A stretch of 64,000 bases of DNA from contig JACKGH010000001.1 of NCBI GenBank assembly GCA_020632075.1, positions 42,133 through 106,132 on the forward strand, given 5' to 3'. Position numbers and translations under genes: made by a program. Origin of the DNA: Candidatus Nomurabacteria bacterium. GTDB lineage: Bacteria; Patescibacteriota; Minisyncoccia; Phycocordibacterales; UBA918. This document shows positions 14,656 to 59,716 of this stretch, piece by piece. The notes beneath the pieces were generated by a model. The model did not search any database and was not told the origin of the DNA. It saw only the letters and a program-made list of their open reading frames with translations. Each line of letters starts with the position of its first letter. Positions within the stretch are counted from its first letter, which is position 1.

Positions 14656-14726
14656 TGCCCGATCGTCTAGTGGTAGGACGTTGGTTTCTGGCACCAAAAA
14701 CTGGGGTTCGAATCCCTGTCGGGCAG
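14656..14726 (+). tRNA. tRNA-Gln (anticodon CUG).
   Basis: The acceptor stem tgcccga pairs with tcgggca. A D-loop AGTGGTAG is present. The anticodon stem-loop is ttggt-ttCTGgc-accaa, and the T-arm carries GGTTCGAATCC. No encoded CCA. Confidence 0.75.
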
Positions 14727-14886
14727 CGAGCATGTGAGACAGACCGAGGTCTCAAAATGAGCTATGTTTATCAAGCTCATGAGAGAACCAGTCATGGACA
14801 CGAACCGCCAAAAACGGTTCGAGTCCAAGGTCTAAAATCACGATTCATCTATTCCGTAATTGCATACCTGCTGAGAGCAGTAGCCA

Positions 14887-14914
14887 GAATGAAAAACCAC
14901 CCGTATGGGTGGTT
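14887..14914. terminator. Bidirectional terminator.
   Basis: aaaaaccaccc-gtat-gggtggttttt perfect stem. Confidence 0.7.
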
Positions 14915-14924
14915 TTTCATTGGG

Positions 14925-15410
14925 TTAGATTTTGTCTGCTAGATGTTTCTGTACCCGCTTATACTCATGCCACGTTAACCAAATGATGAGCAAATCAAAG
15001 AGTGTCAACAAGATGAGGAAGAATGAATGGGTGTATGTATAGCGATATATCTGATACACGATAAAAAGTGCAAAAACTACAATAGCAACTGGATACGCCC
15101 ACAGCTTGCCACGCAAGAGTCCGACAGACAGAAATATCTTGATAATGCCATGACTGAGAAGATATACAGCTGCAAAAAGCTGTGTGTGCTCAGAGAGATA
15201 CGGGATGTACTGCTGGACAGTATTGGCGACGAAGTCTGTTGGGTCTTCAATCAATTCACCTTTCGCTAGATACTCTATGAAGTGTGTGGTGGCACCAGTA
15301 AATAACAGAAGGGTTCCACCAACAATCTCTAGCGCAGCATTGAGTGCTTTGAACACGATGCCAGCTACAAATATGCGGTGCATGTTTTTCTCTTCGGTTA
15401 TTGTAGCCAT
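14925..15410 (-). CDS. Hypothetical membrane protein (161 aa, about 4 TM).
   Basis: Hydrophobic helices; no motif recognised. Confidence 0.45.
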   Translation of the reverse strand: MATITEEKNMHRIFVAGIVFKALNAALEIVGGTLLLFTGATTHFIEYLAKGELIEDPTDFVANTVQQYIPYLSEHTQLFAAVYLLSHGIIKIFLSVGLLRGKLWAYPVAIVVFALFIVYQIYRYTYTHSFFLILLTLFDLLIIWLTWHEYKRVQKHLADKI

Positions 15411-15880
15411 GGCAAAGAAATACTTTTAAGTTTCTGGTCACAGAGATAATACGCACCAGAAATTGCCACTAGGACAATGACAGTACTACCAACGACATCA
15501 GTGAGATGATGTATACCTACGTAAACGCGCGACAATCCGACCATAATCGCTAGAACAAGGAGTAGGTATGCAATCTTCTTGGTATGAGGGTACACCAATG
15601 CAGCGACGTACATGGTGAGAAGCGTATGGTCTGACGGAAAACCGTTGTCAGGATCGTGAGGTACTAGTGGGGTGAAATTACCGACTACAAACGGTCGAGG
15701 GTCGTAGTAGAAGTGGGAAGTAATTTGTGTGATTATGAGGATGAGTGGCAAAGCAATCACTGACGTGATAATCATTTGTCTCTTTATCTCTTTCGAAACA
15801 TACAGGAAATATCCACTAACAATAGCGAGACTTATAAGGAACAAATACTTCGCCCCAAAAATAAAAACAATGTCTAACAT
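15398..15880 (-). CDS. PAP2-family phosphatase (undecaprenyl-diphosphatase or phosphatidate phosphatase-like).
   Basis: PAP2 motifs PSDHT...SRVYVGIHHLTDV in a multi-TM protein. Confidence 0.65.
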   Translation of the reverse strand: MLDIVFIFGAKYLFLISLAIVSGYFLYVSKEIKRQMIITSVIALPLILIITQITSHFYYDPRPFVVGNFTPLVPHDPDNGFPSDHTLLTMYVAALVYPHTKKIAYLLLVLAIMVGLSRVYVGIHHLTDVVGSTVIVLVAISGAYYLCDQKLKSISLPWLQ

Positions 15881-15946
15881 AAGTTACTAGTATAAACGAC
15901 ATTCCCACTTTAGCTAAAGTGGGAATGTCGTCCAAGTGGGCAATGC

Positions 15947-16678
15947 TTATACGAGGTCTTTCTTCTTCGATTCAAATTCTTCCTTGTCGATCTCGCCTTT
16001 AGCGTAGCGTTCTTTGAGGATATCGATAGCACTTGTGTTTGTTGTTGCGGTGTGATGCATTCCGCCTCGATGCATCGCCATACGTACCAAAGCTACAACG
16101 CTTACGATCAGTAAGAGCCAGAACAGTCCCATCACAAGACCGCCGCCAAGCCACCCAGTTCCACCGAATCCATTAAATCCATAGCCCATCATATTGTTGT
16201 GATAGTTAGACCTTGTAATGTCGGGTTGGTACCCGTAGGTACCCATCATGCCATGGCCTCCGCCGTATCCCATCATGGGCATTGCGATTGGTCCAGAGTT
16301 ATAGTTTGACCAACAGCCGAGATATGAGCGGCCCATGTTGATGTGTGCTTGGCGCAAACTGGCTGAACCCTCGCCGCCCATCATATTGTCCATAGCCTCG
16401 TGTTGTGCAGTGCTCGCAAACATGGTGCCCATGTAGGCATCGCCCAGTTTCTCAAATTGATCGTCTGTGACCTTACTGCAGTCCACCTTCGACTGGTCAG
16501 AAATATTTTGTGTGCTGAGAATTGCAGATAATGTATCCCGGAGTTCCTGACTCGTATTACTGTTCGTTTGAGTTGTCCCCCAAGTACCACCCATCATGCC
16601 CATCTGTGCGTGAGTGACATTGACAACGCCGAGGGTAAGTGCGAAGACAGCCACCAGCGTAATAATTAATTGTTTCAT
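15947..16678 (-). CDS. Secreted or membrane Met/Gly-rich protein with a C-terminal SHOCT-like domain; putative metal (Cu) binding.
   Basis: Signal peptide, multiple MMG/MGY/GYG runs, a TM WLLLIVSVVALV, and a C-terminal AIDILKERYAKGEIDKEEFESKKKDL. Confidence 0.55.
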   Translation of the reverse strand: MKQLIITLVAVFALTLGVVNVTHAQMGMMGGTWGTTQTNSNTSQELRDTLSAILSTQNISDQSKVDCSKVTDDQFEKLGDAYMGTMFASTAQHEAMDNMMGGEGSASLRQAHINMGRSYLGCWSNYNSGPIAMPMMGYGGGHGMMGTYGYQPDITRSNYHNNMMGYGFNGFGGTGWLGGGLVMGLFWLLLIVSVVALVRMAMHRGGMHHTATTNTSAIDILKERYAKGEIDKEEFESKKKDLV

Positions 16679-16721
16679 AGAATAAAGATTAAGTATTTAT
16701 AACAGTGGTGGTGTTGACCTG

Positions 16722-16739
16722 ATACCCCCTAGGGGGTAT
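16722..16739. promoter_or_regulatory. CsoR-type operator: perfect 18-bp palindrome overlapping the putative csoR-copA promoter.
   Basis: ATACCCCCTAGGGGGTAT. It matches known CsoR operators such as B. subtilis copZA ATACCCTACGGGGGTAT. A TTGACC -35 lies directly upstream and TATTGT downstream. Confidence 0.7.
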
Positions 16740-16748
16740 TGTACGCTT

Positions 16749-17018
16749 ATGAAAGAATCAGTCAAGAAAGGAGTAGTGCGGCGGCTTAAGATCGCTGAAG
16801 GTCAGGTGCGTGGTCTTCAAAAGATGGTTGACGAAGATGCATACTGTATCGACATTATCACCCAAGCGTCGGCCGTTCGACACCTACTCAGTGCTGTGGA
16901 GGATCTGATGCTCGAAAATCACCTCGGGGAACATGTGGTCCACCAAATGCAAAAGGGGCAAGACAAAAAAGCTACTGAGGAGATCATGAAAGTATTTAAG
17001 GTAGGTAAAAAAAGATAG
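16749..17018 (+). CDS. csoR: CsoR/RcnR-family metal-sensing repressor.
   Basis: RLKIAEGQVRGLQKMVDEDAYCIDIITQASAV...H...H is the CsoR fold signature with Cys/His ligands. Confidence 0.75.
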   Translation: MKESVKKGVVRRLKIAEGQVRGLQKMVDEDAYCIDIITQASAVRHLLSAVEDLMLENHLGEHVVHQMQKGQDKKATEEIMKVFKVGKKR

Positions 17019-17020
17019 GT

Positions 17021-19057
17021 ATGGATCACTCTCATCACAACCACGAACATCATCACTGTCATAACCATGAACCTACACATCATGGGCATGGTGATCACAG
17101 CATGGGTCACGGTTCGGCTCAGACATTCTTACGTCGCTTCTGGATCGTTACCTTTCTCCTCATACCACTCGTGTTTGCCAACGAGATGGTCATGCATGCG
17201 TTTGGATTTCAAGCGTATACACTAAGTAAATGGATCGGTTTTGGCATTGCTACGGTTATCTTTGGGTTTGCACTTATATTCTTTCAGCATGCGCTACACG
17301 AAATAAAAGCTCGCAAGTACGGCATGATGACACTCGTCTCGCTAGCGGTTGGAGCGGGGTATCTTTTCTCTGTAGCCGCCACTTTTATCCCATCGCTTCA
17401 TGCTGACTTCTATCTTGAAATCTCGACTTTAATCTGGGTGCTTCTCTTTGGACACTATCTTGAAGCAAAGTCTGGAGCGGTGGCCGGTAATGCGCTTCAA
17501 GAAGTAGCTAAGTTGTTACCAAAACAAGCACATAAATTATTTAACGGGGTCGAGGAAGATGTAGATATTACTGAGCTTAATGAGAACGACCAAGTACTCG
17601 TTAAACCCGGTGAGAAGATTCCGGCTGACGGAACGATTGTCTCTGGTTCAGCCAACGTTGATGAAGCACTCATTAGCGGTGAATCGAAACCAGTCCATAA
17701 AGGTGTGGGAGACGAAGTTGTGGCCGGTTCTATCTGTCTTGATGGTTCGCTGGCCGTCAAGCTCTCTCGGGTCGGTGAGCACTCAACCATCGGACAAATT
17801 CAAAAACTGATCGCAGAAGCACAACAGACAAAACCAAATTCACAACGAATCGCCGATAAAGCGGCTGCGGTACTCACATTTGTTGCTGGTATCACTGCAC
17901 TTCTCACCATCCTCGTGTGGTCGCTACTACTTGGTGAAACCTTTACTTTTGCCATCACACTCGCCATCACAGTGCTCGTTATTGCCTGTCCTCATGCACT
18001 CGGGCTTGCTATCCCTACCGTCACCACCATTACCACCTCGCTCGCAGTCAAAAACGGCTTCTTTATCAAGAATCTCGCTAAAATTGAAGTCATCAGAAAA
18101 ACAGACTACGTGGTGTTTGATAAGACCGGCACACTCACCACTGGAGTCTTTGGTGTGACTGACATTGTTCCATTTGGTGGAAAAACAAAAGATCAGATAC
18201 TCAAAATTGCCGCGTCTCTTGAACAGCACTCATCTCACATTATTGGTCAGTCGATCGTTGCATATGCCAGAGAGGAGCGTATTAGGTTTGAGGAAATTGC
18301 GGAGTTTAAAAATATTGCTGGGAAAGGCATTAAGGCCAAATTGAATAGTCAGCTCTACATTGTCGGAAACAAGACGATCATTGAGGACACTAAGATTCCA
18401 CTCGGTGAAGTTGGAAATGAATACACAAAATTAGCTTCCAAAGGAAAAACCACCATCTTTGTTGCGGACGGAGAAAGCGTTGTTGGTCTGATTGCTCTAT
18501 CGGACACTATAAAACCAGAATCGTACAAGACAGTTAGAAAACTTCACGATATGGATGTGAAAGTGGCTATGCTCACGGGCGACAACAAGGAAGTAGCTAA
18601 GGGTGTGGCAGAGGAACTTGGTATCGACACTTTCTTTGCTGAGGTACTACCAGAAGACAAGTACTCACACATCAAATCACTACAAGCCGATGGCAATGTG
18701 GTTTTGATGGTTGGTGATGGGGTAAATGATGCTCCGGCCCTCACTCAAGCCGATGCTGGCATTGCAATCGGAGCTGGTACTGATGTGGCGGTTGAAGCTG
18801 GTGACGTAGTACTGACACAGAGCAATCCTGAAGACATCGTGAAGCTTATTACGCTCTCTAAAAGGGTCTATGGCAAGATGATTCAGAATCTTGTTTGGGC
18901 ACTTGGATACAACATCATTGCAATTCCAGCTGCTGCGGGTATGTTCGCATACTGGGGCTTTTTTCTTCGACCAGAGATCGGGGCGTTTGTCATGAGTCTC
19001 TCAACGGTTATTGTGGTTGCTAATGCTATGCTCCTCAAACGGGTTAATTTACGCTAA
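17021..19057 (+). CDS. copA: Copper-translocating P1B-type ATPase with a His-rich N-terminal metal-binding tail.
   Basis: CPH (IACPHALGLA), DKTGTLT, GDGVNDAP and TGES motifs, plus an N-terminal HSHHNHEHHHCHNHEPTHHGHGDH. Confidence 0.9.
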   Translation: MDHSHHNHEHHHCHNHEPTHHGHGDHSMGHGSAQTFLRRFWIVTFLLIPLVFANEMVMHAFGFQAYTLSKWIGFGIATVIFGFALIFFQHALHEIKARKYGMMTLVSLAVGAGYLFSVAATFIPSLHADFYLEISTLIWVLLFGHYLEAKSGAVAGNALQEVAKLLPKQAHKLFNGVEEDVDITELNENDQVLVKPGEKIPADGTIVSGSANVDEALISGESKPVHKGVGDEVVAGSICLDGSLAVKLSRVGEHSTIGQIQKLIAEAQQTKPNSQRIADKAAAVLTFVAGITALLTILVWSLLLGETFTFAITLAITVLVIACPHALGLAIPTVTTITTSLAVKNGFFIKNLAKIEVIRKTDYVVFDKTGTLTTGVFGVTDIVPFGGKTKDQILKIAASLEQHSSHIIGQSIVAYAREERIRFEEIAEFKNIAGKGIKAKLNSQLYIVGNKTIIEDTKIPLGEVGNEYTKLASKGKTTIFVADGESVVGLIALSDTIKPESYKTVRKLHDMDVKVAMLTGDNKEVAKGVAEELGIDTFFAEVLPEDKYSHIKSLQADGNVVLMVGDGVNDAPALTQADAGIAIGAGTDVAVEAGDVVLTQSNPEDIVKLITLSKRVYGKMIQNLVWALGYNIIAIPAAAGMFAYWGFFLRPEIGAFVMSLSTVIVVANAMLLKRVNLR

Positions 19058-19066
19058 AATAATCAC

Positions 19067-19486
19067 ATGAAATTTGGAAGACTGTGGAAGTTACATAAAG
19101 CCATCTGGGTAGTCATTACCGCTATGTTTGTATCTGTGCTCTTTCTCAGTCTCTTTCAGATGCCGATGGGTATGGATATGACCACGGGCGCTTCGGGGTG
19201 TCCTTTTATGTCTCACGGTGAGGAGGTCTTGTGTTCCATGAACACACTTGAACATCTGTCTGCCTGGCAGTCTGCTTTTACTGCTATCGTCCCTACCTTT
19301 GGTCTTTTAACACTTACGGTAGTGAGTATTTTGTTGCTGGCTTCAGTCGCCCCCAATCTACTTTCCACACCTCGCTTCAGTGAGCCATCATCGCCACGAT
19401 ATCTACGCGAGCAGATATACACCTTTAGCTACCGGCCGCTCCAAGAACTGTTTTCAAGCGGCATCCTACACCCGAAGCTTTTCTAG
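19067..19486 (+). CDS. Hypothetical membrane protein in the cop operon.
   Basis: Follows copA by 10 nt, carries 2-3 TM helices and a CPFMSH motif. A terminator hairpin follows at 19497-19525. Confidence 0.45.
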   Translation: MKFGRLWKLHKAIWVVITAMFVSVLFLSLFQMPMGMDMTTGASGCPFMSHGEEVLCSMNTLEHLSAWQSAFTAIVPTFGLLTLTVVSILLLASVAPNLLSTPRFSEPSSPRYLREQIYTFSYRPLQELFSSGILHPKLF

Positions 19487-19532
19487 TTAACTAATTCCAA
19501 CAACAGGCCTTTTTCTGTTGTTTTATTAGTTA

Positions 19533-20414
19533 ATGAGAAAAGTAACGATGAATAACAAAACTATAGTAATTGCCGTGTTTGTGCTTCTCCTTGGTGGACT
19601 AGCCTACTACACCGTTGGCTACAACCGCCACACGGACTCGAGCGACAGTCACGAAGCTATGATGGGTGCCCACGACGATGGCACCATCGAACCATATGAA
19701 ATCTACCCAGGTGATGTTGCTGAAAAAATTAAGAACAATGACAACATTGTCTTGCTTGACGTGCGAACACCTGAAGAATATGCCGAAAATCACCTCAAGG
19801 GTGCACTACTGCTTCCGGTACAAGAACTCTCACAGCAGTCACTGAATGCAATCGGACTCGGCGAAAACGCAAAAGACAAGGAGATCTACCTCTACTGTCG
19901 TAGCGGCAGTCGGAGTCAGACGGCGTATAACATCATGCGCTCGCTCGGGTACACCAACATTAAAAGTGTGGCTGGTGGTATGATCCACTGGGAAGAAGAC
20001 AACTACCCATTTACTGAGTCAGGTGTATACGAAGGAAATCAAATGATGAACGGTGAGACTATGATGCCGGACGATGCTACTGGCCCTCACATTACCTTTA
20101 ATCAAACCAGTCACGACTTTGGGGTTATTCCGCAATACGGTGGCAAGGTTGAAACGACCTTCACGGTCACAAATACCGGCAAAGAGACGTTACAGATTGG
20201 CGACCTAACGACGAGCTGCAGCTGTACGAGCGCAATGATCGCGGAAACCTCTATTGAACCCGGTAAAAGTACAACTCTGACAGTGGTGTTCGATCCAAAC
20301 TTCCACGAGGAACCGCTTGATGTCTTTAAACGTACCGTCTTTATTCCTACCAACGACCCCCGAAATCCTGAAGCAGAAGTCTCAATCACTGTCGATATTG
20401 CAGAGGGTCAGTAA
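19533..20414 (+). CDS. Rhodanese-domain protein with a C-terminal DUF1573-like beta-sandwich domain.
   Basis: N-terminal TM, a rhodanese core LLDVRTPEEYAENHLKGA...YCRSGSRS (active-site Cys), then FGVIPQYGGKVETTFTVTNTGKETLQIGDLTTSCSCT. Confidence 0.65.
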   Translation: MRKVTMNNKTIVIAVFVLLLGGLAYYTVGYNRHTDSSDSHEAMMGAHDDGTIEPYEIYPGDVAEKIKNNDNIVLLDVRTPEEYAENHLKGALLLPVQELSQQSLNAIGLGENAKDKEIYLYCRSGSRSQTAYNIMRSLGYTNIKSVAGGMIHWEEDNYPFTESGVYEGNQMMNGETMMPDDATGPHITFNQTSHDFGVIPQYGGKVETTFTVTNTGKETLQIGDLTTSCSCTSAMIAETSIEPGKSTTLTVVFDPNFHEEPLDVFKRTVFIPTNDPRNPEAEVSITVDIAEGQ

Positions 20415-20420
20415 TCATTA

Positions 20421-20921
20421 ATGAAAATAATACCTATGAACAAATACACTATTGGTGCGATCTTGCTGGGAACCATTCTGTTGCTGGTAATGGTCTCGAC
20501 CCAGAGCAACAACGCTGGACAAGCAGCCACCAAACAATCAGCCACATCTATCATCACTGTTACGGGAGACAAATATGACTTCGGTACAATTGATATCTTT
20601 GGCGGCAAAGTACATACAACTTACATGCTCAAAAATGAAGGACCCGATGATGTCACTATCACCAACGCCCAAACGAGCTGTATGTGTACCGAAGGCGAAA
20701 TAGACGGTTATACATTCGGTATGCATGGTAGTAACGTGCACAACATTGTCATCCCGGCCGGTGCAGAAAAAGAAGTGACCGCCACCTTCGACCCACTCGC
20801 TCATGGTCCGAATGGTACCGGTAAGATCACTCGAGAATTGGTCCTTAAGACCAACTCCACTGCTTCACCGGAAGTACGAATGATGTTCAATGGAGACGTC
20901 GCTAAAAATGAAAACAATTAA
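20421..20921 (+). CDS. DUF1573-like secreted protein.
   Basis: Signal/TM followed by YDFGTIDIFGGKVHTTYMLKNEGPDDVTITNAQTSCMCT, a paralog of the upstream C-terminal domain. Confidence 0.55.
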   Translation: MKIIPMNKYTIGAILLGTILLLVMVSTQSNNAGQAATKQSATSIITVTGDKYDFGTIDIFGGKVHTTYMLKNEGPDDVTITNAQTSCMCTEGEIDGYTFGMHGSNVHNIVIPAGAEKEVTATFDPLAHGPNGTGKITRELVLKTNSTASPEVRMMFNGDVAKNENN

Positions 20922-21321
20922 TCAGAAAAAACCTATGCAATACGGCTATTCAAAACAAGTAGCGCTACCCTTTACGGAAGCGGTGACAAAAACTAAAGAC
21001 GCACTGGCAGTGGAAGGTTTCGGGGTGCTCACTGAGATTAATGTTGCTGCCACGCTGAAGAAAAAACTCGATATTAATTTCAATCAGTACGTCATATTTG
21101 GTGCGTGTAACCCGGCGTTTGCCCACCAAGCACTCGAGGCAGAACCAGAGATTGGTCTACTACTTCCGTGCAACGTAATTGTTTACGAGCGCGACGGCAG
21201 TGTGCATGTCTCCGCCATTCTGCCAACGGTCGCCATGCAAATGGTTAAAAACGACTCATTACACGAAATCGCAACTGCAGTTGAAGCAAAGCTTAAAACT
21301 GTTGTTGACGCAATCGCATAA
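20908..21321 (+). CDS. DUF302-family protein.
   Basis: YGYSKQVALPFTEAVTKTKDALAVEGFGVLTEINVAATLKK...ILPTVAMQM is typical of DUF302. Confidence 0.55.
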   Translation: MKTINQKKPMQYGYSKQVALPFTEAVTKTKDALAVEGFGVLTEINVAATLKKKLDINFNQYVIFGACNPAFAHQALEAEPEIGLLLPCNVIVYERDGSVHVSAILPTVAMQMVKNDSLHEIATAVEAKLKTVVDAIA

Positions 21322-21326
21322 ACCTA

Positions 21327-22090
21327 TGAATGAAGAACAACAAACAACCAAAGTTACCGCTATGCCAGTAAGGACAAATTACCTCATTCCGCTTTCGATC
21401 GTAATCGCCGGGGCACTCATTGGGGCTGGACTTTATTTCAGTGGCAGCGCCACGTCATCAACTGTTCAAGCAAATAAAGCAGCTGTGGCTACTCCGCAAC
21501 CAGCCGTTGAGCAAGGTTCACCAGAGAAAGTAAATCCAGTTACCGCAACCGATCATATCAAAGGTTCACCTGATGCAGCGGTAAAGATTGTTGAGTATTC
21601 GGACTTTGAATGTCCATTCTGCAAACGTTTCCACGACACCATGAATCAGATAATGGAACAGTATGGCAATTCGGATGACGTAGCGTGGGTATACCGCCAC
21701 TTTCCACTTGACCAACTACATAGCAAAGCGCGACCAGTTGCAGTGGCATCTGAGTGTGCTAATGAGCAAGGTGGCAACGATACGTTCTGGAAATTTACTG
21801 ATCGTTACTTTGCACTTACCAAGTCGAATAATCAGACCGATATTCAAACCGTAATCCCGCAGATTGTAAATGAACTTGGTCTTAATACCACTGCTTTTCA
21901 AAGTTGTTTCGAAAGTGGAAAGTATGATGACCATATCCAGGCCGATGTACAGAACGCTATTGATACTGGTGGGCGTGGCACCCCATGGAGTATTGTCATT
22001 GCTCCAAATGGAAAGACCTTTCCACTGAATGGAGCGCTGCCACTCGAAGCCGTAAAGCAATTGATCGAACTGGCAAAGAAAGAACAATAA
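21327..22090 (+). CDS. DsbA-like thioredoxin-fold thiol:disulfide oxidoreductase, membrane-anchored.
   Basis: N-terminal TM, then KIVEYSDFECPFCKRFH containing a CxxC. It is a paralog of 58953..59711. Confidence 0.75.
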
Positions 22091-22093
22091 GCA

Positions 22094-22654
22094 ATGCTGC
22101 GAACACTCGGTACAGTCTTTAAACAACCACGGTATATACTCGTAGCGACACTCGTTGCGGTGAGTGTATTCGTGTTTGCAGTCTGGTTACCAAATGTCAG
22201 TTTGATAGCTTCTGTTCTTACGTCAAATGTGGGTACCTCTGCGGAGAAGGTGACTTTTCTGTTTAGCCTATTAGGCTCACTTACTACCAACTTCACGGTT
22301 CTATCTGCTGGTACGACCATTGTGGTGGCGATACTCTTTGGTATGAATGTCGCATTACTTCTGTACTACATCCAGAAAGTTAGAGTTAGAACATCAAGCA
22401 TTAGCTCCTTTAGTGGTATGGGTGTAGCTGGTGTCATAAGTGGCTTCTTGGGGGTCGGGTGTGCAGCATGCGGAACCTTTATCTTAAGTTCCGTACTGGT
22501 GCTGATTGGAGCTGGTGGAATATTAGTATACTTACCATTCGGAGGAAAAGAATTCGGAGTCATTGGTATTGCTCTACTGTTAGTAAACATTCACCAGTTA
22601 CTTAAAAAGATCAATACCAGTCTTACCTGTGAGACAAATTTATTTAGGAAGTGA
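22094..22654 (+). CDS. Four-TM membrane protein with an intramembrane CxxC (GVGCAACG) and a C-terminal Cys; conserved partner of the DsbA-like gene.
   Basis: Four hydrophobic helices, GFLGVGCAACGTFIL, and C-terminal TSLTCETN. It is a paralog of 59717..60271. Confidence 0.5.
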   Translation: MLRTLGTVFKQPRYILVATLVAVSVFVFAVWLPNVSLIASVLTSNVGTSAEKVTFLFSLLGSLTTNFTVLSAGTTIVVAILFGMNVALLLYYIQKVRVRTSSISSFSGMGVAGVISGFLGVGCAACGTFILSSVLVLIGAGGILVYLPFGGKEFGVIGIALLLVNIHQLLKKINTSLTCETNLFRK

Positions 22655-22671
22655 ATTAGAAAGATAAAATT

Positions 22672-24306
22672 ATGAAACGACTACTCATTATTATTGTGGC
22701 TGTGTTACTTTTAGGTGCTGCGTTTTGGTACCTGAATCAAAATGACACGATTACTACCAGCCACCTAGATACAACTGGTTACAATAACATTCAATCTGCT
22801 AGTGATTTAACGAAACTCACTGACGAACAGGTGGCAACTGTCCGCCCTACTGAAGTAGTGGAACTAAAAGACGGTGATACTTATAACTTAACTGCTTCGA
22901 TTGTGAAGCAAGAGGTTGGTAATCGAGAGGTAAAACGATTGGCATACAATGGGCAAATCCCAGGGCCAATCCTTAAAGCACCAAAAGGATCAACTGTAAC
23001 CATTAACTTTACCAATAACATCGACATGCCAACCGCGCTGCACTCACATGGCATTCGAGGTGATTACAAAATGGACGGCGCAGCACCACTCTCACAAGAC
23101 CCTATTCCGGTTGGTGGAACCTTCACGTATAAAATCACCTTCCCTGACACTGGTGTGTTTTGGTATCATCCGCACGTTCGAGAAGACTACCAGCAAGACA
23201 TGGGTCTCTATGGGAACATGGTCGTAACGGAACCTGGCTACTGGAATGATGTCGATCAAGAAGAATATCTAATCGTCGATGATGTACTCGAAAATGGTGA
23301 CTATAGTCCGACAATTGTCACCAACACCATGATGGGTCGTTTTGGTGACACGCTACTCATTAACGACCAAACAAATTACACACTTACGGTAAAACAAGGT
23401 CAGATAACACGACTTAACTTCACCAACGTAGCCAACACACGTACTTTTGATTTGTCGCTCACAGGCGCTGAAGTAAAAATGGTTGGTGGTGATATAGGTA
23501 GAATTGAAAAAGAGAAAATGGTTGACGATGTCATTATTGCGCCGGCCGAACGGTATGTTGTTGAGGTCTTCTATAAAGATTCGGGCACGTATGCCATCCT
23601 GCATCGTGGTAAGAAAATCGGTACGGTAGTAGTAGAGCCAAGCTCTGAAAATAAACAGGCACAATTTGCAGTCTTGGCTGAACATGCGGCGGATTACTCA
23701 GACATTCGCACAAATCAAACAGCACTACTCGCCAAGGCACCGGATAAACGTCTCCGTCTTGATGTAGACTTGATGGGACAGATGGGTGACATGATGTCAG
23801 GCGGAATGATGGATAACAACAACGAAGCACTGCGGGAACACTGTAAGCTCATGCCCGAAATGCATGGTTGCGAGCAGTTCACTACAGAGAATGGTGGTGA
23901 GCCTGGAGCTGGTATTGAGTGGGAAGATGATATGGCAATGATGAATAGGGTGAGCACAGACAAAAACACAACCTGGATCATTGAAGATCAAGATACCAAA
24001 AAACAAAACGAGGATATTAACTGGTCCTTCAAACAAGGCGACCTGGTAAAAGTACGCATTTACAACGACGAAAAAGGCGAACACCCAATGCAACATCCAA
24101 TTCACTTTCATGGACAACGTTTTGTTGTTCTGGCACGTAATGGACAGTTGAATGACGACTTGCAATGGAAAGACACGGTCCTGATTCCAAAGGGTCAGAC
24201 AGTCGATCTTCTAGTTGACATGAGTAATCCAGGAGAATGGATGGCACATTGTCACATTGCAGAACACTTGCACTCAGGGATGATGTTCCAGTTTAAGGTT
24301 GAGTAA
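22672..24306 (+). CDS. Multicopper oxidase (CopA/CueO/laccase-like).
   Basis: Signal peptide plus four Cu-binding motifs HSHG, WYHPH, HPIHFHG and HCHIAEHLHSGM. Confidence 0.85.
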   Translation: MKRLLIIIVAVLLLGAAFWYLNQNDTITTSHLDTTGYNNIQSASDLTKLTDEQVATVRPTEVVELKDGDTYNLTASIVKQEVGNREVKRLAYNGQIPGPILKAPKGSTVTINFTNNIDMPTALHSHGIRGDYKMDGAAPLSQDPIPVGGTFTYKITFPDTGVFWYHPHVREDYQQDMGLYGNMVVTEPGYWNDVDQEEYLIVDDVLENGDYSPTIVTNTMMGRFGDTLLINDQTNYTLTVKQGQITRLNFTNVANTRTFDLSLTGAEVKMVGGDIGRIEKEKMVDDVIIAPAERYVVEVFYKDSGTYAILHRGKKIGTVVVEPSSENKQAQFAVLAEHAADYSDIRTNQTALLAKAPDKRLRLDVDLMGQMGDMMSGGMMDNNNEALREHCKLMPEMHGCEQFTTENGGEPGAGIEWEDDMAMMNRVSTDKNTTWIIEDQDTKKQNEDINWSFKQGDLVKVRIYNDEKGEHPMQHPIHFHGQRFVVLARNGQLNDDLQWKDTVLIPKGQTVDLLVDMSNPGEWMAHCHIAEHLHSGMMFQFKVE

Positions 24307-24422
24307 CTGGGAGTAAAAATTGAAAGGACTATAATTACTGCTGTAAAAAATAAAGAAAAAGCGCCATTGTCGGCGTTTTTTCTTTTTTAACGATAAGTTT
24401 CAATTTTGTTATACTTGCAACC

Positions 24423-25868
24423 ATGAGTGAGTTGTATGCACAAACATTAAAGTATTTTCACCTTGCAATCACGGAATTCTTACCGACTCTTAGAGAGTTG
24501 TGTGATAACGTAACAGATGCCACCGTAAGAGAAGAGATAGAAGATTTAATTGAGGCATATGAAGATATTGATGCCAAGATAGAATCTCATGGTCTTAATT
24601 ACGATGACCCTAATCGTTCTTACGATGGAGAGCCTGATGAGATCAAAATTGATATCCCAGACGAAATGATTAAAAACTTGGCTCGTCTTTCTCATCGGCT
24701 ACTCTTTGCTTGGAAAAAACGACTTGTAAAACTTCAAAGAAAAACATATCTCACTGACGCTAACAAGGACGAAATTTACAAACTAGAGAATCTAATCTGG
24801 CCAATAGAGGCTTTACTGAAGGCTGAGTCTTATGTTCTGGGCAAATACGCTAATCTAGGTCCTTTGACTTTTCCTGGGGAAACCTCTGATCATGAAGGTG
24901 GAGTGACAAAAAGACTACATGATTTGCTTGAGCAGATTCATTCTTGTTACTCCTTGGGTGATGCAGGAGTTCTAGAGGGACAGCGTTTATCTGACACAGA
25001 AGAGCATGTGAGAACACAAATGACAGAAATTGCAGACGCTGTTGGTAACGAGGTTTTTCAGTTAAAGGTTAAAAAGCTTAACTCTGGATGGAGAACTATG
25101 CTGAAGAGTGGTTTTCATAATAGAAAGACGGCCGAATCTAAGCTTGCTGAGTGGGAGTCAATAATTAATGACATCTTGAAAAATCTTCATCCAGTAGATT
25201 CAGTTGAAAATATTGTAAAGACAATTAAGAATCGTCTAAAAACCGAAGACTTATTTGTTGAGAGTCGGTCTCAGGATGAAGACCAACATCTCCTTATAGG
25301 TAAAAGGGATGGTAGTCCAGAAAAGGCCCATCTGATCATTGACGGAAAGACCGGCGAGATCCGTGTTGAGGACAATCAGCAAGAACCAACTGAATTGATC
25401 AGTAAGATTGAATCGGTTCTCACACTACGTGATGGTAGAAAAATCAGATCAACACGGGAGTCTCTAGAAGAGATTTCAGATCACGATGCAAAACGACCAA
25501 AATTAGATTTGGAGACAAATTTTTCGGTTTCTGGAAGCAGTGCCGGAAACTTCCTAAAGTTTAAAGTTAAAAACGATGGAGAGGAATCTGCTGTTGATGT
25601 TAAAGCCATTTTTGTAGCCGATGGAGAAGAGGTGGAGAAAATTAGCGTTGCACACAGCATTTCACCAACACAATGTAGTCCTGAAATAAACTATCGTTAC
25701 ACAGATACAATGCTCTTTAATAGTCAGATATCTGATGCGAGAGTAAAATTTGAATACAAGGATCGCGCTGGCAATACTTACTTGTCAGGACGGAAACTCA
25801 TTCAAAATGATCGTGCTGACGGAAGATTTAATATACAAAGTAGACCCGGTGACTATTTTGAAGAATAG
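24423..25868 (+). CDS. Hypothetical protein (481 aa), acidic, no recognised domains.
   Basis: Long AT-rich ORF. It is convergent with the recombinase gene and overlaps it by 16 bp. Confidence 0.5.
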   Translation: MSELYAQTLKYFHLAITEFLPTLRELCDNVTDATVREEIEDLIEAYEDIDAKIESHGLNYDDPNRSYDGEPDEIKIDIPDEMIKNLARLSHRLLFAWKKRLVKLQRKTYLTDANKDEIYKLENLIWPIEALLKAESYVLGKYANLGPLTFPGETSDHEGGVTKRLHDLLEQIHSCYSLGDAGVLEGQRLSDTEEHVRTQMTEIADAVGNEVFQLKVKKLNSGWRTMLKSGFHNRKTAESKLAEWESIINDILKNLHPVDSVENIVKTIKNRLKTEDLFVESRSQDEDQHLLIGKRDGSPEKAHLIIDGKTGEIRVEDNQQEPTELISKIESVLTLRDGRKIRSTRESLEEISDHDAKRPKLDLETNFSVSGSSAGNFLKFKVKNDGEESAVDVKAIFVADGEEVEKISVAHSISPTQCSPEINYRYTDTMLFNSQISDARVKFEYKDRAGNTYLSGRKLIQNDRADGRFNIQSRPGDYFEE

Positions 25869-27196
25869 ATGTTGATTTGCTTATCTTGTAGCACAAGTTT
25901 GCTTTTTAAACAGCCCAGTAACTCTCGTTTTTCATAAATTGGTCTCTTTCTTAGAATGTGCTTAGCGTAATTCCGTATATCAATATCTCTCACACTCACT
26001 TTAGTTGAATCTTCTCCTAACACTGATTTCTGGAACTCATTGTGTGCTTCTAGCTCGGCTTTGATACGATCTTTCATACCAATTTCATCGAGTGAGATTG
26101 TGTCGAGTAGTTGCGCTAGTTGCTCAATCAAATCTTCTTCTCTGATGTAGCCACACTTACAGTGTTTATCGTGGAATTTGCTACAACCGTAGTAGACGTA
26201 GCGATGTGTATTGCCGTTTTTCTGTGTCTTGAATTTTTCGTCAGCGCTTATGGTCGAACCGCAGAGTCCGCAACTAATCATCTTAGTGAAGGCGAATTCT
26301 TTGTTTTGAGTTCTTACTACGTGTTCGTTGGTGAGTCTGTTTTGAACTGCCTTGTACAACTCTTTTGAAATTATTGGGTCATGTTTACCTTTGTACCAGT
26401 TACCGCTACCTTTTGGATACTCAAATTCTCCATAATAGAAGGTGTTTTTGAGGATGATATACACGTTGCTAAGCGTGAGTGGTTTTCCGTTCTTTGTTGC
26501 AAACCCTAAGTCGTCCCGAAGCCAGTGGAATATCTTTCGTCCAGACCAGCCATTGTATGCGACCTTCTCAAATATTTGTTTGATGACGTCTGCTCGTTGT
26601 TCATCAATAATCACTTCGCATTTTCGATTCCTGTCAGGATGATTGAGGTATCCAGTCGGTGCGACTGCGGGCCACAGTCCCATTTCACACCGTGCCTTGA
26701 GACCTCGCTTCACATTGACCACCTTGTTGTCATTCTCAAGCTTCGCCTGTGACCCAAGGATCATGAGAAGGAATTTTTCGTTCGGATTGTTCGTGAATCG
26801 TTGTCCGAAGGTGCGGATTTCGTGCAACAATCCTTGGTCCATGAGATCGACGACCGATCCGAGATCTCCTGCGTTACGGGAGAGACGGTCTGGTGCCCAG
26901 GTCAAAATACCGTTAAACTTGCCACTCCTGATCTCAGCAAGTAGCTCGTTGTATATGGGTCGCTGACCAACCTCTTTCGAGGAATGTGATTCACGTTTGA
27001 TTTCAGTAACGTTGAGTTGCTCACGGGAGGCAAGATCAAGCATCTCCCGTACCTGTGATTCGATCGAGAGGGCTTGTTTATCCTCCTGTTCCGTTGATTT
27101 TCGTGCGTAGAGGCAGTACCTGACGGTTGTTTGTACCTCCACTTTTTTCTCTGTCACCAGAGCGTTGCTTGCGTATGTCTCCATTACCACAATCAA
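25853..27196 (-). CDS. Large serine recombinase (phage integrase-type).
   Basis: Resolvase catalytic domain YCLYARKSTEQED...SIESQ, a recombinase domain, and a zinc ribbon CGLCGS...YYGCSKFHDKHCKCG. Confidence 0.85.
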   Translation of the reverse strand: MIVVMETYASNALVTEKKVEVQTTVRYCLYARKSTEQEDKQALSIESQVREMLDLASREQLNVTEIKRESHSSKEVGQRPIYNELLAEIRSGKFNGILTWAPDRLSRNAGDLGSVVDLMDQGLLHEIRTFGQRFTNNPNEKFLLMILGSQAKLENDNKVVNVKRGLKARCEMGLWPAVAPTGYLNHPDRNRKCEVIIDEQRADVIKQIFEKVAYNGWSGRKIFHWLRDDLGFATKNGKPLTLSNVYIILKNTFYYGEFEYPKGSGNWYKGKHDPIISKELYKAVQNRLTNEHVVRTQNKEFAFTKMISCGLCGSTISADEKFKTQKNGNTHRYVYYGCSKFHDKHCKCGYIREEDLIEQLAQLLDTISLDEIGMKDRIKAELEAHNEFQKSVLGEDSTKVSVRDIDIRNYAKHILRKRPIYEKRELLGCLKSKLVLQDKQINIYSSK

Positions 27197-27240
27197 TGAC
27201 GCAATACCCTGAAGGAGTCTAGGGCATCTGAAGTTGGTAA

Positions 27241-28710
27241 CTAAATCGCATCTGGGCGTCCGATGCCTGCAGTGGCGACTCGAGGGCTGTCTTCAAGAAT
27301 TCTAAGAACGACAATTGCGAAAGCGTCTGCAAGGTCATCATGCGTCTCTTTCCCAAAGCCAACCATTTGTTCGATCAGTTCCTCACATCCGACATCGGGG
27401 AAAAGAATCCTGCCTTCTTTTATGAATGAGGTGGTGAGGCGAAGTCGAGCGCCTTTGTCAGCACGCCCAGTCGGTACTCCGACCACATCGTAACGGTTCG
27501 TATCTAAGACCTGTACGAGTGCTCTTTGGTATCCAACGTCCTCAATGTACAGCTTCACACGGTAGCATTTGTCTTTATGTACTGCGTGCAATGCTTTGAT
27601 ATGTTCGACCTGTTCGGGAAAAGTTAATTGCGCGTTCGTGGGATTGGGTTGAATGTATATCTTCATATTCTTCCCATACCCGTAGACGTAGCCGACCACC
27701 ATAGCGGTACAGTCGGCAGAACTTTTCTCACTGATCGCCAAGTCCACCCCAATGGCAATCTGGTGTAACCCTTGGGATGGGAGTGATGAGTACGTTTGAA
27801 TCCATTGTGGTTGTACCACCTGTTCTGCAGTCGAGATGATTTTCAGCATGTATTCGCGGTACCATGACACCTCGTCACCAGTTTTCTCTTTTTCTGCTTC
27901 AACACTCTCTGTGTCGGGATATTTTCCCGGCCATAGCGGGTTATTATCGACATCTACAATCGGGTATTCACGATACATAGCATTGAGGGAATTCATCTCA
28001 CCAGCTTCTATCTTTCGCTGTAGTCGCTTCAGTACCGAATCCTCATGGAGCAGGTTCCCAACAGCGATGATACGTGTGCGCCTACTACCGGCTGGTATCA
28101 TCTCCCCTGTGAGCCAATCGAATGTCTTGTTTCGTCCCTCACGTGTCTTTACTGAATTAATGTCTTCAATGTCATCAAGGATGATCAGGTCTGGTCGATG
28201 TTCACCGTGACGCATACCACGGATGCTCTGCTCGACTGATGTGATCATGATCTTCACGTTGAGCCGTTTGATAATGAGTGCAGTAGCATTCCCAAGACTG
28301 TTCCGTTCTTCTTCAAACGGCCCAAGGTCTCGCTTGAGGAGTTCGTTGTGCAGAAGTTCGTTTTTTATGTTTGTGAGATATGCCCGCGCCTTTTGTTCGG
28401 TTTGCCCTGCAATGACGATGAATTTACGCTGTTGAACGCCTAAAATCGCCCACAGCACGTATGCAGTGGTGATAATGGTGGATTTAGCTGATCCTCGAAA
28501 CGCAACGATCACCGCAAGCTTCACGCTTTCATCTTGTAGGATGCGGAAGAGGTCAACATGGAAGGGTGCAACCTCATACTCAATGTATTTGTGAAAGTAG
28601 ATCGGAAAAAAGTGTTCGAAGCTTTTTTGCACGAGGTTTCGACGAAGCGAATGGTCGGAGAGTACTTTATCGAAAAAGTCTTCGACACTACTTTTCTTTT
28701 TTCTTGCCAT
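27241..28710 (-). CDS. Phage terminase large subunit.
   Basis: ATPase Walker-A-like AFRGSAKST, a C-terminal RNaseH-like nuclease region with acidic residues (DVGYQ, HDDLADAF), and adjacency to a terS-like gene. Confidence 0.65.
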   Translation of the reverse strand: MARKKKSSVEDFFDKVLSDHSLRRNLVQKSFEHFFPIYFHKYIEYEVAPFHVDLFRILQDESVKLAVIVAFRGSAKSTIITTAYVLWAILGVQQRKFIVIAGQTEQKARAYLTNIKNELLHNELLKRDLGPFEEERNSLGNATALIIKRLNVKIMITSVEQSIRGMRHGEHRPDLIILDDIEDINSVKTREGRNKTFDWLTGEMIPAGSRRTRIIAVGNLLHEDSVLKRLQRKIEAGEMNSLNAMYREYPIVDVDNNPLWPGKYPDTESVEAEKEKTGDEVSWYREYMLKIISTAEQVVQPQWIQTYSSLPSQGLHQIAIGVDLAISEKSSADCTAMVVGYVYGYGKNMKIYIQPNPTNAQLTFPEQVEHIKALHAVHKDKCYRVKLYIEDVGYQRALVQVLDTNRYDVVGVPTGRADKGARLRLTTSFIKEGRILFPDVGCEELIEQMVGFGKETHDDLADAFAIVVLRILEDSPRVATAGIGRPDAI

Positions 28711-29110
28711 AGTGATTTACGGACGAGAGCCGAAGCGCCTCTTTTATGAGACGCTTTTGCTCTTTCGTTAATGGTTCATCAGTCGATACCTTTCCTGAAA
28801 TCTCAAGCTTGTTGCTGTACCGAGAATTGTGCGTGGTCAAATACAAGCGAATTGCTTTAAACTCTCGATCACCAATAAGAGAAAACAGTTGATTCTCCGC
28901 AACATCAGACATAAACGTTCGACCCTCAACAAGCGCATCTTCGACCTGTTTTTTGAAACGCTTGTTGCTATTGATCCAGCGATACACAGTGGCTCGACCA
29001 ACACCCACTTTCTGACATGCTGTCTCGATGGTTGGGGTACGTTTAAGTTGCTCAAGAAACGCTTCCTTGAGTTTCTTTTGCCGAGCGTGAATAGTGTCAC
29101 GCCTGCTCAT
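28688..29110 (-). CDS. Terminase small subunit-like HTH protein.
   Basis: MSRRDTIHARQKKLKEAFLEQL...TACQKVGVGRATVYRWI has a HTH and sits upstream of TerL. The start was chosen at the internal Met to avoid overlap with the MTase. Confidence 0.5.
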   Translation of the reverse strand: MSRRDTIHARQKKLKEAFLEQLKRTPTIETACQKVGVGRATVYRWINSNKRFKKQVEDALVEGRTFMSDVAENQLFSLIGDREFKAIRLYLTTHNSRYSNKLEISGKVSTDEPLTKEQKRLIKEALRLSSVNHYGKKKEK

Positions 29111-31506: not shown

Positions 31507-31788
31507 ATGTTTAATCTGAGCAATAGTAGTATCCTATATGATAACGTTGTGTTATATTGCAACAAGGCGTATAGTCAAATTATGAAAAGCGAGTCGCAAA
31601 AATTGGGCAATAACCTCAAACGAATTAGAACTGAGAAAGGTATTTCGCAGGGTGACATTGCTCGTGAGCTTGAGGTAAGCAGAAGCTTTATAAGCAATAT
31701 CGAGAACGGTAAAACAAACCCGACTTTGTCGACTATTTCGAAACTTGCAAAAACTGTTGGAGTCTCTGTGAGCGAATTAACAAAATAA
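31507..31788 (+). CDS. XRE-family HTH transcriptional regulator.
   Basis: LKRIRTEKGISQGDIARELEVSRSFISNIENGKTNPTLSTISKLAKTVGVSVSEL. The true start is probably MKSESQ at 31582. Confidence 0.75.
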   Translation: MFNLSNSSILYDNVVLYCNKAYSQIMKSESQKLGNNLKRIRTEKGISQGDIARELEVSRSFISNIENGKTNPTLSTISKLAKTVGVSVSELTK

Positions 31789-31798
31789 TTTTAATAAC

Positions 31799-32305: not shown

Positions 32306-32307
32306 TT

Positions 32308-34800: not shown

Positions 34801-34808
34801 AATAGAAT

Positions 34809-36269: not shown

Positions 36270-36273
36270 GCTT

Positions 36274-36867: not shown

Positions 36868-36870
36868 ATT

Positions 36871-37926: not shown

Positions 37927-37937
37927 TTTAGTAATCA

Positions 37938-38600: not shown

Positions 38601-38606
38601 GGTTAT

Positions 38607-40883: not shown

Positions 40884-40897
40884 TCTATGGATTTTGT

Positions 40898-59711: not shown

Positions 59712-59716
59712 AGAGT

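Follow-up and report, generated by a model that had tools for sequence, protein, structure and literature searches.

The window analysed in the current work is a stretch of 64,000 nucleotides (nt) from Candidatus Nomurabacteria bacterium (GenBank assembly GCA_020632075.1, contig JACKGH010000001.1, positions 42,133 to 106,132), a member of the Patescibacteria or Candidate Phyla Radiation (CPR); all positions given below are those of the window. Downstream of a tRNA-Gln(CUG) gene lies a block of copper and redox genes, followed by a module with large serine recombinase, terminase and methyltransferase genes, a variable module of low GC content, and a gene for a zinc-ribbon protein of 442 amino acids (aa) (Table 1). 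The core genes ATCase, ArgRS and RsgA are found at 48.5-56 kb, beyond the right boundary. The segment from 14728 to 43343 (28.6 kb), which starts right after the last base of the tRNA, is an acquired region, and it is probably one integrated mobile element at the 3' end of tRNA-Gln, with the copper/redox block as its cargo. The backbone of this putative element consists of an end of ~190 nt, the recombinase, TerL, TerS and two methyltransferase genes (25853-31119), and the 442-aa zinc-ribbon protein gene (41866-43194).

An initial annotation of this DNA had listed copper and redox genes downstream of tRNA-Gln(CUG), with a phage-like island abutting them, and had proposed a composite acquired region at 15-43 kb. 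Every gene on that list was recovered by Pfam and sequence features, and the abutting island was found as the serine integrase, TerL, TerS and two methyltransferase genes at 25853-31119. PAP2, which had been placed directly after the tRNA, is present, and the first gene is in fact that of a DUF2127 protein, which had been missed. The csoR-copA pair with a His-rich N-terminus was correctly read as to the CsoR family and the N-terminus; the pump is of the CopB type and not a classical CopA. The acquired region itself was upheld, at 14728-43343, and the picture of two neighbouring islands gave way to that of a block which probably lies inside one element.

Table 1. Features of the tRNA-Gln locus and the acquired region (positions in the window; a point in the strand column marks a feature without strand; TM, transmembrane segment).
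Position	Strand	Feature	Evidence
14656-14727	+	tRNA-Gln(CUG), proposed integration target	ARAGORN; Rfam tRNA 58 bits
14728-14916	+	Conserved recombinase-proximal element end, ~190 nt	Homologous sequence in L095, L109, L110, L129
14925-15410	-	DUF2127 membrane protein, 4 TM	Pfam 1.2e-31
15398-15880	-	PAP2-family membrane phosphatase	Pfam 3.8e-17
15896-15931	.	Perfect 36-bp palindrome ACGACATTCCCACTTTAG / CTAAAGTGGGAATGTCGT between PAP2 and SHOCT genes	Repeat search
15947-16678	-	Met-rich (8.6% Met) SHOCT protein: signal peptide, one TM, C-terminal SHOCT	Pfam, composition, TM segments
16722-16739	.	Candidate CsoR-type operator ATACCCCCTAGGGGGTAT, perfect palindrome	Between -35-like TTGACC (16714) and -10-like TATTGT (16737)
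16749-17018	+	CsoR-family metal-sensing repressor	Pfam Trns_repr_metal 8e-25, 87.5 bits vs cutoff 22.8
17021-19057	+	Predicted CopB-type (P1B-3) copper-exporting P-type ATPase	TIGR01511 above cutoff; motifs
19067-19486	+	139-aa two-TM protein with Met/Cys-rich loop MPMGMDMTTGASGCPFMSHGEEVLC	No family match
19533-20414	+	Membrane-anchored rhodanese (intact CRSGSRS loop) fused to DUF1573 Ig-like domain with CxC	Pfam; 53% homologue in L129
20421-20921	+	Membrane-anchored DUF1573 protein with CxC motif	Pfam; homologue in L129
20890-21321	+	DUF302 protein	Pfam 4.1e-26; homologue in L129
21326-22090	+	Membrane-anchored DsbA-like thioredoxin-fold protein (CPFC)	Pfam Thioredoxin_4 and DSBA
22094-22654	+	186-aa four-TM protein with intramembrane CAAC	No Pfam or PDB match; homologue next to DsbA in L129
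22672-24306	+	Three-domain multicopper oxidase, signal/anchor, Met-rich insert	Pfam Cu-oxidase, Cu-oxidase_2, Cu-oxidase_3
24362-24389	.	Terminator hairpin with T-run, closes csoR-to-oxidase operon	Sequence
24423-25868	+	481-aa gene, low GC 0.39, no assigned function	3' end overlaps recombinase 3' end by 16 nt
25853-27196	-	Large serine recombinase/integrase, intact YARKST catalytic motif	Pfam Resolvase, Recombinase, Zn_ribbon_recom; PHROG 95 integrase 9e-66
27241-28710	-	Terminase large subunit-like (TerL)	PHROG 38, 3.5e-78
28688-29185	-	Terminase small subunit-like helix-turn-helix protein (TerS)	PHROGs TerS families; Pfam HTH_Tnp_1_2 / Sf6_terminase
29097-31119	-	Two N6/N4 DNA methyltransferases, second fused to ParB-like domain	Pfam, PHROGs
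31507-41845	+	Low-GC (0.375) variable module	Pfam, PHROGs, PADLOC
41866-43194	+	442-aa CPR-specific protein, three Cys4 zinc ribbons	Homologues in L102, L118, L123 and on L128 contig; family search
43192-43207	+	Second copy of end motif, TGAGACAGTGACCGAG	Pattern match
43321-43343	+	Degenerate direct repeat of tRNA-Gln 3' end, GGTTCAGAACCGTAGTGGGCAGC, proposed right element boundary	16/23 positions, relaxed scan

The tRNA-Gln gene, the single tRNA that ARAGORN detects within the window, follows dnaX, and this order is kept in 7 class-level relatives and also in locus L129 (comparison contigs and loci are denoted by L numbers). None of the 7 class-level relatives has the island genes downstream of dnaX and tRNA-Gln. 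The best match of DnaX among species-representative genomes is 55% identical, and its matches are all from CPR/Patescibacteria. At closer range, contig L002 is 99.9% identical to the window through position 14727 and carries an entirely different sequence thereafter, and L001, a contig of a metagenome-assembled genome, terminates at 14727, the final base of tRNA-Gln. The tRNA/island junction is real and not an assembly artefact because independent assemblies agree: L087 and L088 cross it identically, and L089, a contig of 29.7 kb, spans 15.9-45.5 kb with the same arrangement as the window. The synteny comparison that the initial annotation had proposed thus came out in favour of acquisition; a conserved core position of the genes, the observation it had named as counter-evidence, was not found in the relatives, and in L129 the genes are accompanied by the same recombinase. 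The divergent tail of L002, which is also present in L093, a different species, was considered as the far flank of the island; this was rejected, as the tail is nowhere in the window.

The right boundary is marked by a second, imperfect copy of the tRNA end. The left copy of the boundary repeat consists of the last 23 nt of tRNA-Gln (14705-14727). A repeat with at most 3 mismatches is found nowhere else in the window; the top non-self match to the tRNA 3' end across the whole window is the 16/23 copy at 43321-43343. The partial repeat that had been expected downstream is therefore present in degenerate form, and a near-exact copy is not. It is located inside a gap of 234 nt in which GC and gene content go back to those of the core, and none of 5000 shuffles of this gap scored 16/23. 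Contigs of other assemblies break within the gap (L097 begins at 43260 and L101 stops at 43339), and the search for alternative right-hand junctions gave only these contig breaks.

GC, GC at third codon positions (GC3) and codon usage set the region apart from the core. GC is ~0.50 in both core flanks; the copper block (0.455) and the recombinase module (0.454) lie below this value, and at 31.5-41.8 kb it falls to 0.375. The codon usage of the copper block lies at a distance of 0.094 from the core, a value that only 0.2% of size-matched core subsets reach and that exceeds the other 99.8%, and it is nearer to the recombinase module (0.071) than to the core. The composition scan suggested at the outset thus agrees with a foreign origin of the block.

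A very improbable alternative is that the copper/redox genes are ancestral core genes beside tRNA-Gln and that only 25.8-43.3 kb is foreign. The GC3 of the copper genes is within 2 standard deviations of the core, multicopper oxidase homologues are common in CPR, and the distant L129 has these genes at its dnaX-tRNA-Gln locus. In L129, however, the recombinase sits between the tRNA and the copper genes, and its identity to that of the window (79%) compared with that of DnaX (48%) points to repeated site-specific integration at this locus rather than vertical inheritance. The divergence of the 99.9%-identical strain L002 exactly at the tRNA end, the lack of the genes at this place in the seven relatives, the codon usage of the block and the presence of element end sequence between tRNA and block all speak against a core origin. 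In addition, CopB and the oxidase are 77-87% identical to those of L102, against 55-69% for the best DnaX matches, which suggests phylogenies incongruent with those of core markers.

The element end between the tRNA and the first gene of the block contains the conserved blocks GCATGTGAGACAGACCGAGGT (14730-14750) and GTCATGGACACGAAC and CATCTATTCCGTAATTGCATACCTGCTGAGAGCAGTA (14846-14882), after which follows a bidirectional terminator hairpin (14889-14916). Comparison loci were taken from metagenome contigs scanned with the 3' part of the tRNA and from viral contigs scanned with the recombinase. In four of these loci (L095, L109, L110 and L129), homologues of the end adjoin the 3' end of tRNA-Gln, the 3' end of the recombinase gene, or both. 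In L110 (recombinase 65% identical), tRNA-Gln(CUG) is located 119 nt past the stop codon of the recombinase, and these 119 nt carry CATCTATTCCG..GCATACCTGCTGAGAGCAGTA and the terminator, the same sequence as in the window at 14846-14916. In L109 (66%), GCATGTGAGACCGACCGAGGT is found 69 nt past the recombinase stop, matching 14730-14750, and GGGCA, with which the acceptor stem ends, forms the start of the contig. In L095, a complete tRNA-Gln is separated by 157 nt from a 21-nt partial tRNA 3' end, and a copy of the spacer with 77% identity is fused to the latter. L129, which comes from a distant organism (DnaX 48%, Dus 45%), shows the order dnaX, tRNA-Gln(UUG), spacer homologue, DUF4238 and recombinase, and its spacer homologue is 69% identical over 275 nt, tRNA included. 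In the viral-contig collection, the 21-nt end motif occurs in L110 only, and the tRNA 3' end was not found.

Because the copper block has the recombinase-proximal end on its tRNA side, with no tRNA-like repeat of at least 15/23 positions between 14.7 and 43.3 kb, the arrangement favours this block (14917 to ~25852, 11 kb from DUF2127 to the 481-aa gene) as internal cargo of the element and not as a neighbouring island. From the adjacency observed in five loci, we infer a role of the recombinase at the tRNA-Gln site. A motif of the form TGAGACAG(N0-2)ACCGAG has two matches in the window, at 14735-14748 and at 43192, close to the two proposed ends; the pattern was picked after both sites had been seen, and this shared end motif is only a lead. 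The spacer was also considered as a structured non-coding RNA. This was rejected: Rfam gave nothing above threshold, and pairing covariation in the element end backs the terminator alone. The other blocks are conserved at the sequence level and resemble protein-binding sites.

Copper cassettes are linked to the recombinase in at least 4 other lineages. L107 (oxidase 62% identical) carries CsoR, CopB, a 138-aa protein, DUF411, multicopper oxidase and a 210-aa gene, then recombinase, TerL, TerS and methyltransferase, which is the order of the window. L128 has the same chromosomal flank as L107 (SurA, M23, ATPase and PAP2), but directly against the recombinase and without a cassette. In L102 and L103 (CopB 87%, oxidase 77%), the recombinase module, the 442-aa homologue and the copper genes stand in a circular permutation of the window order. 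In L129, CsoR, rhodanese-DUF1573, DUF1573, CopB, DUF302, oxidase, DsbA and the CxxC membrane protein are found on the other side of the recombinase, and L120 has a CopB fragment beyond it. Related CPR cassettes contain a DUF411 (CopG-like) gene in place of the genes from rhodanese to the CxxC membrane protein of the window.

Such variation can also be seen as a sign of tandem accretion, in which an integrase-less copper island, similar to a cis-mobilizable element (CIME) or a pseudo-SCC, entered the same tRNA-Gln site beside an independent recombinase element. This is considered unlikely. The mosaic composition, with a low-GC 481-aa gene between oxidase and recombinase, would fit it, as would the position of the cassette on either side of the recombinase according to lineage (window and L107 versus L102 and L129). 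L105, moreover, has CopB, a 133-aa protein and the oxidase with no recombinase within 10 kb, and a cassette therefore also exists outside the element. L085 differs left of 14894, which implies that end sequence and cargo can be recombined. The copper block of the window is nevertheless bracketed by parts of the element, with the conserved end on the tRNA side, and no internal tRNA-like repeat is found at the threshold given above; block and recombinase module also share their GC and a similar codon usage. In the contig in question (L085:2264-2331, sample ERZ28655481), identity over the copper block is 100% from 14894 onward, and a different sequence of 68 nt (…CTACTATTCTCAGTAAGTTTAGCGAAACAAT), possibly a diverged variant of the element end, precedes it.

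The recombinase module is widespread. More than 8000 recombinase homologues were found below 1e-30, and the best 120 cluster representatives, which carry the labels Kaiserbacteria, Pacebacteria, Parcubacteria or Patescibacteria, all have identities of 75-87%. DnaX identity, by comparison, is 45-69%. A recombinase identity so far above that of core proteins between the same genomes suggests recent spread. The gene order ParB-methyltransferase, methyltransferase, TerS, TerL, recombinase is kept in most of the 20 viral-contig loci and also in L102, L107 and L128. The recombinase open reading frame (ORF) has 447 aa here and is called with 443 aa in other assemblies; an exact-protein look-up of the 447-aa ORF matched no record. 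PAP2 homologues beside the recombinase also occur in L108 and L128, and a tRNA-Ser is found nearby in L111 and L119; the family is not confined to tRNA-Gln. Two tandem TerL-like paralogues, ~45-51% identical to the TerL of the window, precede the recombinase in L112-L116 and L127 (for example L113:2432-5453).

The variable module encodes a helix-turn-helix regulator (cI-like), an Hsp70-like protein of 830 aa, an IetA-like AAA ATPase, an Mrr nuclease, an HNH-like nuclease and proteins without assignment. The array at 31799-41845 resembles a defence island in its gene content. PADLOC on 31.8-41.8 kb gave generic matches only (IetA-like AAA, Mrr and PDC-S50) and no complete known system. Proteins of 486 and 197 aa without assignment and a PDC-S50-like protein also lie within 31799-41845, and the Mrr protein has a topoisomerase-type zinc ribbon. 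The gene at 39661-40239 has a 62% homologue in element L108. The AlphaFold2 model of the 442-aa protein has a pLDDT of 84 and no fold match beyond zinc ribbons. The idea of a capsid, portal or replication protein was rejected, as the confident model matches zinc ribbons only and not a virion fold. Portal, capsid, tail and lysis genes gave no Pfam, PHROG or PADLOC match in 31.5-43.2 kb, where highly divergent proteins of CPR phages are possible, and no replication initiator or primase was recognised in the element.

The lack of recognised virion genes, the decayed right repeat and the high conservation of the module in very many CPR genomes would also be expected from an old, fixed and immobile remnant, similar to a domesticated prophage, whose module is kept for a host function and to which the copper genes are merely linked. 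Such a remnant is an alternative of low but appreciable probability. Its weak points are the strain-level polymorphism exactly at the junction, the variation of contexts and cargo by lineage, the intact catalytic motif of the recombinase, and the recombinase identity far above that of core proteins, which suggests recent spread.

Besides L085 and L105, several other observations weigh against a single mobile element integrated at the tRNA by its recombinase. The sequence that follows the tRNA in L002 and L093 represents another occupant or flank and, being absent from the window, not a simple empty site. An empty site, that is tRNA-Gln joined to the sequence after 43343, was not found among the comparison contigs, and a circular form was not seen. 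The degenerate right-hand repeat has 7 mismatches in 23 positions, and long direct repeats are not expected from large serine recombinases; the link between recombinase and tRNA site is therefore circumstantial. In L107, L108 and L128, the module abuts a PAP2 gene, and the locus has no tRNA in the vicinity of the recombinase. Taken singly, the copper genes deviate mildly in GC3 (z between +0.4 and -1.9). Virion, replication and conjugation genes were not recognised, and an inter-cell vehicle is thus not apparent. With these points taken together with the junction, the composition and the position of the element end, one 28.6-kb element with copper cargo is still regarded as the probable reading.

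A broader interpretation, somewhat short of probable and put forward tentatively, is that integrative elements of one highly conserved family move from class to class within Patescibacteria and shuttle swappable cargo such as copper operons and defence genes. Their backbone would comprise the large serine recombinase, TerL, TerS, the ParB-methyltransferase and the ~190-nt end, without virion genes, and some members would target tRNA-Gln. If true, bacteria with almost no known machinery of horizontal transfer would have a vehicle that resembles satellites or tycheposons in function.

Regulation of the copper block can be read from its promoter region. The palindrome at 16722-16739 is unique in the window, is kept upstream of csoR in L129, and conforms to the G-tract pseudopalindromic operator pattern (TAC-N9/10-GTA at a regulated promoter). 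The experimentally defined CsoR operators of Streptomyces lividans copZA, TACCCCCTAGGGGTA, are near-identical to it (PMC3902906). The nine plus-strand genes from csoR to the oxidase (16749-24306) have intergenic gaps of at most 47 nt, and they may be inferred to form a nine-gene operon repressed by CsoR. The SHOCT gene is divergent from csoR, and a promoter-like site on the minus strand overlaps the palindrome; the divergent SHOCT-PAP2-DUF2127 unit may therefore be co-regulated. By alignment to structures 4M1P, 4ADZ, 3AAI and 2HH7, the metal site of the repressor is C33, H58 and H62. The x-C-H-C ligand pattern of Cu(I) sensors is not seen, as the second Cys position is His62, the pattern of the Thermus thermophilus CsoR (3AAI); metal specificity is therefore uncertain from sequence alone.

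P-type ATPases of the P1B-3 group are defined by CPH, NX5GYNX4P and MSXSTX5N motifs, a His-rich N-terminus and the lack of an HMA domain. The island ATPase has the N-terminus MDHSHHNHEHHHCHNHEPTHHGHGDH, with 14 His among the first 30 residues, and the motifs DKTGT, CPH at 323, MSLST (MSLSTVIVVAN), GDGVND and NX5GYNX4P (NLVWALGYNIIAIP); an HMA domain gave no Pfam match, and the nearest solved relatives are copper ATPases. The pump is assigned on the basis of these motifs and the missing HMA domain to the CopB/P1B-3 type, not to classical CopA. Homologues of the 139-aa protein follow CopB in L102, L105 and L107, which makes it a conserved CopB partner in CPR cassettes.

The DsbA-like protein probably starts at 21326, the position called in L089. 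The 186-aa CxxC membrane protein was compared with solved structures without a match, and it is presumed to be the redox partner of the DsbA-like protein. The core of the same genome contains a paralogous pair at 58953-60271, with a DsbA-like protein (58953-59711, 52% identical) and a four-TM CxxC protein (59603-60271, 42%). Since the island pair and the core pair are paralogues, this uncharacterised CPR membrane family may well act as a DsbA redox partner. The multicopper oxidase has all four copper-ligand motifs, HSH, WYHPH, HPIHFHG and HCHIAEHLHSGM (HCH motif included), together with the three cupredoxin domains of a CueO-like enzyme; its score against the NCBIfam CueO equivalog is 150, with a cutoff of 525, and it is therefore not a CueO orthologue. 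The perfect palindrome at 15896-15931, at which Logan assemblies break exactly, may function as terminator, operator or recombination site.

On this basis, a course of events can be proposed. The element would be integrated into tRNA-Gln by its serine recombinase. The C-H-H CsoR repressor would bind the palindrome overlapping the csoR promoter, as homology and sequence suggest, and on binding Cu(I) it would leave the DNA, so that the nine-gene operon, and probably also the divergent SHOCT-PAP2-DUF2127 unit, is derepressed. The CopB-type ATPase would then export cytoplasmic copper, and the membrane-anchored oxidase with its Met-rich insert would oxidise Cu(I) on the outside of the membrane to Cu(II), which is less toxic. 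The additional DsbA-like protein and its CxxC partner, which duplicate the core pair, may keep envelope thiols and disulfides correct under copper stress. The rhodanese/DUF1573 CxC proteins, DUF302, the Met-rich SHOCT protein and the 139-aa Met/Cys protein are possible accessory handlers of envelope thiols or copper.

Some further observations concern the tRNA-Gln site. The anticodon of the dnaX-adjacent tRNA-Gln is CUG in the window and in L094, and UUG in the 7 class-level relatives and L129. The tRNA-Gln of L110 is also CUG, though its neighbourhood is not that of dnaX, and a distinct T-arm is common to the CUG tRNAs. L094:2394-4307 (DnaX 69%) has an identical tRNA-Gln and, after a spacer of 49 nt, an exact partial copy of this tRNA with a length of 53 nt; the copy (tRNA positions 19-71) includes the anticodon, and a distant large serine recombinase (36%) lies ~320 nt past it, directed away from the tRNA. 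Integration could swap the 3' two-thirds of the tRNA, which is a speculative idea. In L006 (8125-8352), from Parcubacteria, a fragment 47% identical to the island N6_N4 methyltransferase lies ~2.2 kb downstream of a dnaX-adjacent tRNA-Gln and was possibly left behind by a related element at this site. Within the island of the window, the GC of the recombinase gene falls from ~0.49 in its 5' part to ~0.38-0.42 in its 3' part, which suggests a recombination joint inside or beside this gene (24423-25868 / 25853-26400).

To the right of the island, a 68-nt direct repeat with 88% identity (44094-44161 and 44534-44601) is found upstream of two small genes, one of which (44600-45067) has a type IV pilin N-methylation motif; the repeats are probably duplicated promoter or leader regions. 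Farther right, at 56578-58809 on the minus strand, a 743-aa protein combines a GDSL lipase domain with matches to Pfam HECW_N and SKICH, families named from eukaryotic proteins and odd in a CPR bacterium. An exact-protein look-up of the HI0933-like gene matched no record.

Genomes of CPR/Patescibacteria are ~1 Mb in size and only a handful of their phages have been described; to our knowledge, plasmids and conjugative systems are not known from them. Since so few transfer vehicles are known, the exchange of adaptive genes in CPR is largely an open question. The present locus is a concrete candidate for such a vehicle, with precise boundaries, a conserved recombinase, packaging and methylation genes, and a cargo slot that holds copper operons in several lineages. 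It also defines a compact copper-defence operon of CPR with uncharacterised envelope proteins, namely the 139-aa Met/Cys protein, the DUF1573 CxC proteins and the new CxxC partner of DsbA. Full-text searches, whose coverage is incomplete so that a prior description is possible, gave no published account of a CPR serine-recombinase element or a CPR copper island.

Copper operons of such logic and tRNA-linked islands are both well known. The CsoR operons of S. lividans (csoR/copZA), Bacillus subtilis (copZA) and T. thermophilus (copZ-csoR-copA) have in common with the island the CsoR repressor, a G-tract operator overlapping the promoter, and a P1B ATPase immediately downstream, and the T. thermophilus CsoR (PDB 3AAI) shares the C-H-H site. 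The island differs in that it has no CopZ chaperone, its pump is of the CopB type (CPH, His-rich N-terminus), and its operon extends into seven extracytoplasmic or membrane genes, from the 139-aa protein to the oxidase. In comparison with CueO/CopA oxidases and Scs/Dsb systems of Proteobacteria, the exported oxidase with Met-rich insert and the pair of a DsbA-like and a membrane CxxC protein, analogous to ScsC/ScsB, are similar. The oxidase, however, is below the CueO cutoff, the membrane partner has no counterpart among Pfam families or solved structures, the CPR host is without a classical periplasm, and the island DsbA pair is paralogous to a core CPR pair.

As a classical tRNA island, the region starts at the tRNA 3' end, where similarity to L002 stops (14727), has a distal direct repeat of this end in the degenerate 16/23 copy, and is atypical in composition and variable in presence between strains, with alternative junctions in L002, L085 and L093. 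The tyrosine integrase of P4/lambda type that would stand beside the tRNA is missing: there are no Phage_integrase matches among the island ORFs, and the sole recombinase is of the large serine type and 11 kb from the tRNA. Staphylococcal cassette chromosome mec (SCCmec) elements have one or more internal large serine recombinases and carry resistance genes; they insert at the 3' end of a conserved housekeeping gene, their boundary repeats are short and imperfect, and their structure is mosaic and composite. Compared by description, the island has these features in common with them; its target is a tRNA and not rlmH, it has one recombinase and not CcrAB, and it carries terminase and methyltransferase genes.

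The tycheposons of Prochlorococcus resemble the island in their streamlined genomes, tRNA-site integration, partial tRNA repeats, modular backbone and swappable cargo, including metal homeostasis, and some carry phage packaging genes. Among tycheposons, 910 of 937 integrase-carrying elements use tyrosine recombinases, and packaging genes were never seen by those authors in one element with cargo (bioRxiv 10.1101/2020.12.28.424599). The island, in contrast, has a large serine recombinase, TerS, TerL and cargo together, and belongs to another phylum; tRNA-targeted integration with cargo in a streamlined genome is shared, and the tyrosine recombinase of that clade and its replication module are not.

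The likeness to phages with serine integrases and to satellites such as phage-inducible chromosomal islands (PICIs) lies in the PHROG 95 integrase at one end, TerS, TerL, the ParB-methyltransferase and the cI-like helix-turn-helix protein; cargo next to the attachment site recalls phage morons. Of a complete temperate prophage, integrase and terminase are present, and portal, capsid, tail and lysis genes are not recognised in the remaining 12 kb; integrase and packaging genes without virion genes are the content of a PICI-like satellite. The element differs from typical PICIs in its size, as 28.6 kb exceeds theirs, and a helper phage is not known. What is unusual in comparison with all these systems is a CPR-conserved large-serine-recombinase element with TerS, TerL and methyltransferases and without virion genes, to which copper cargo is repeatedly linked.

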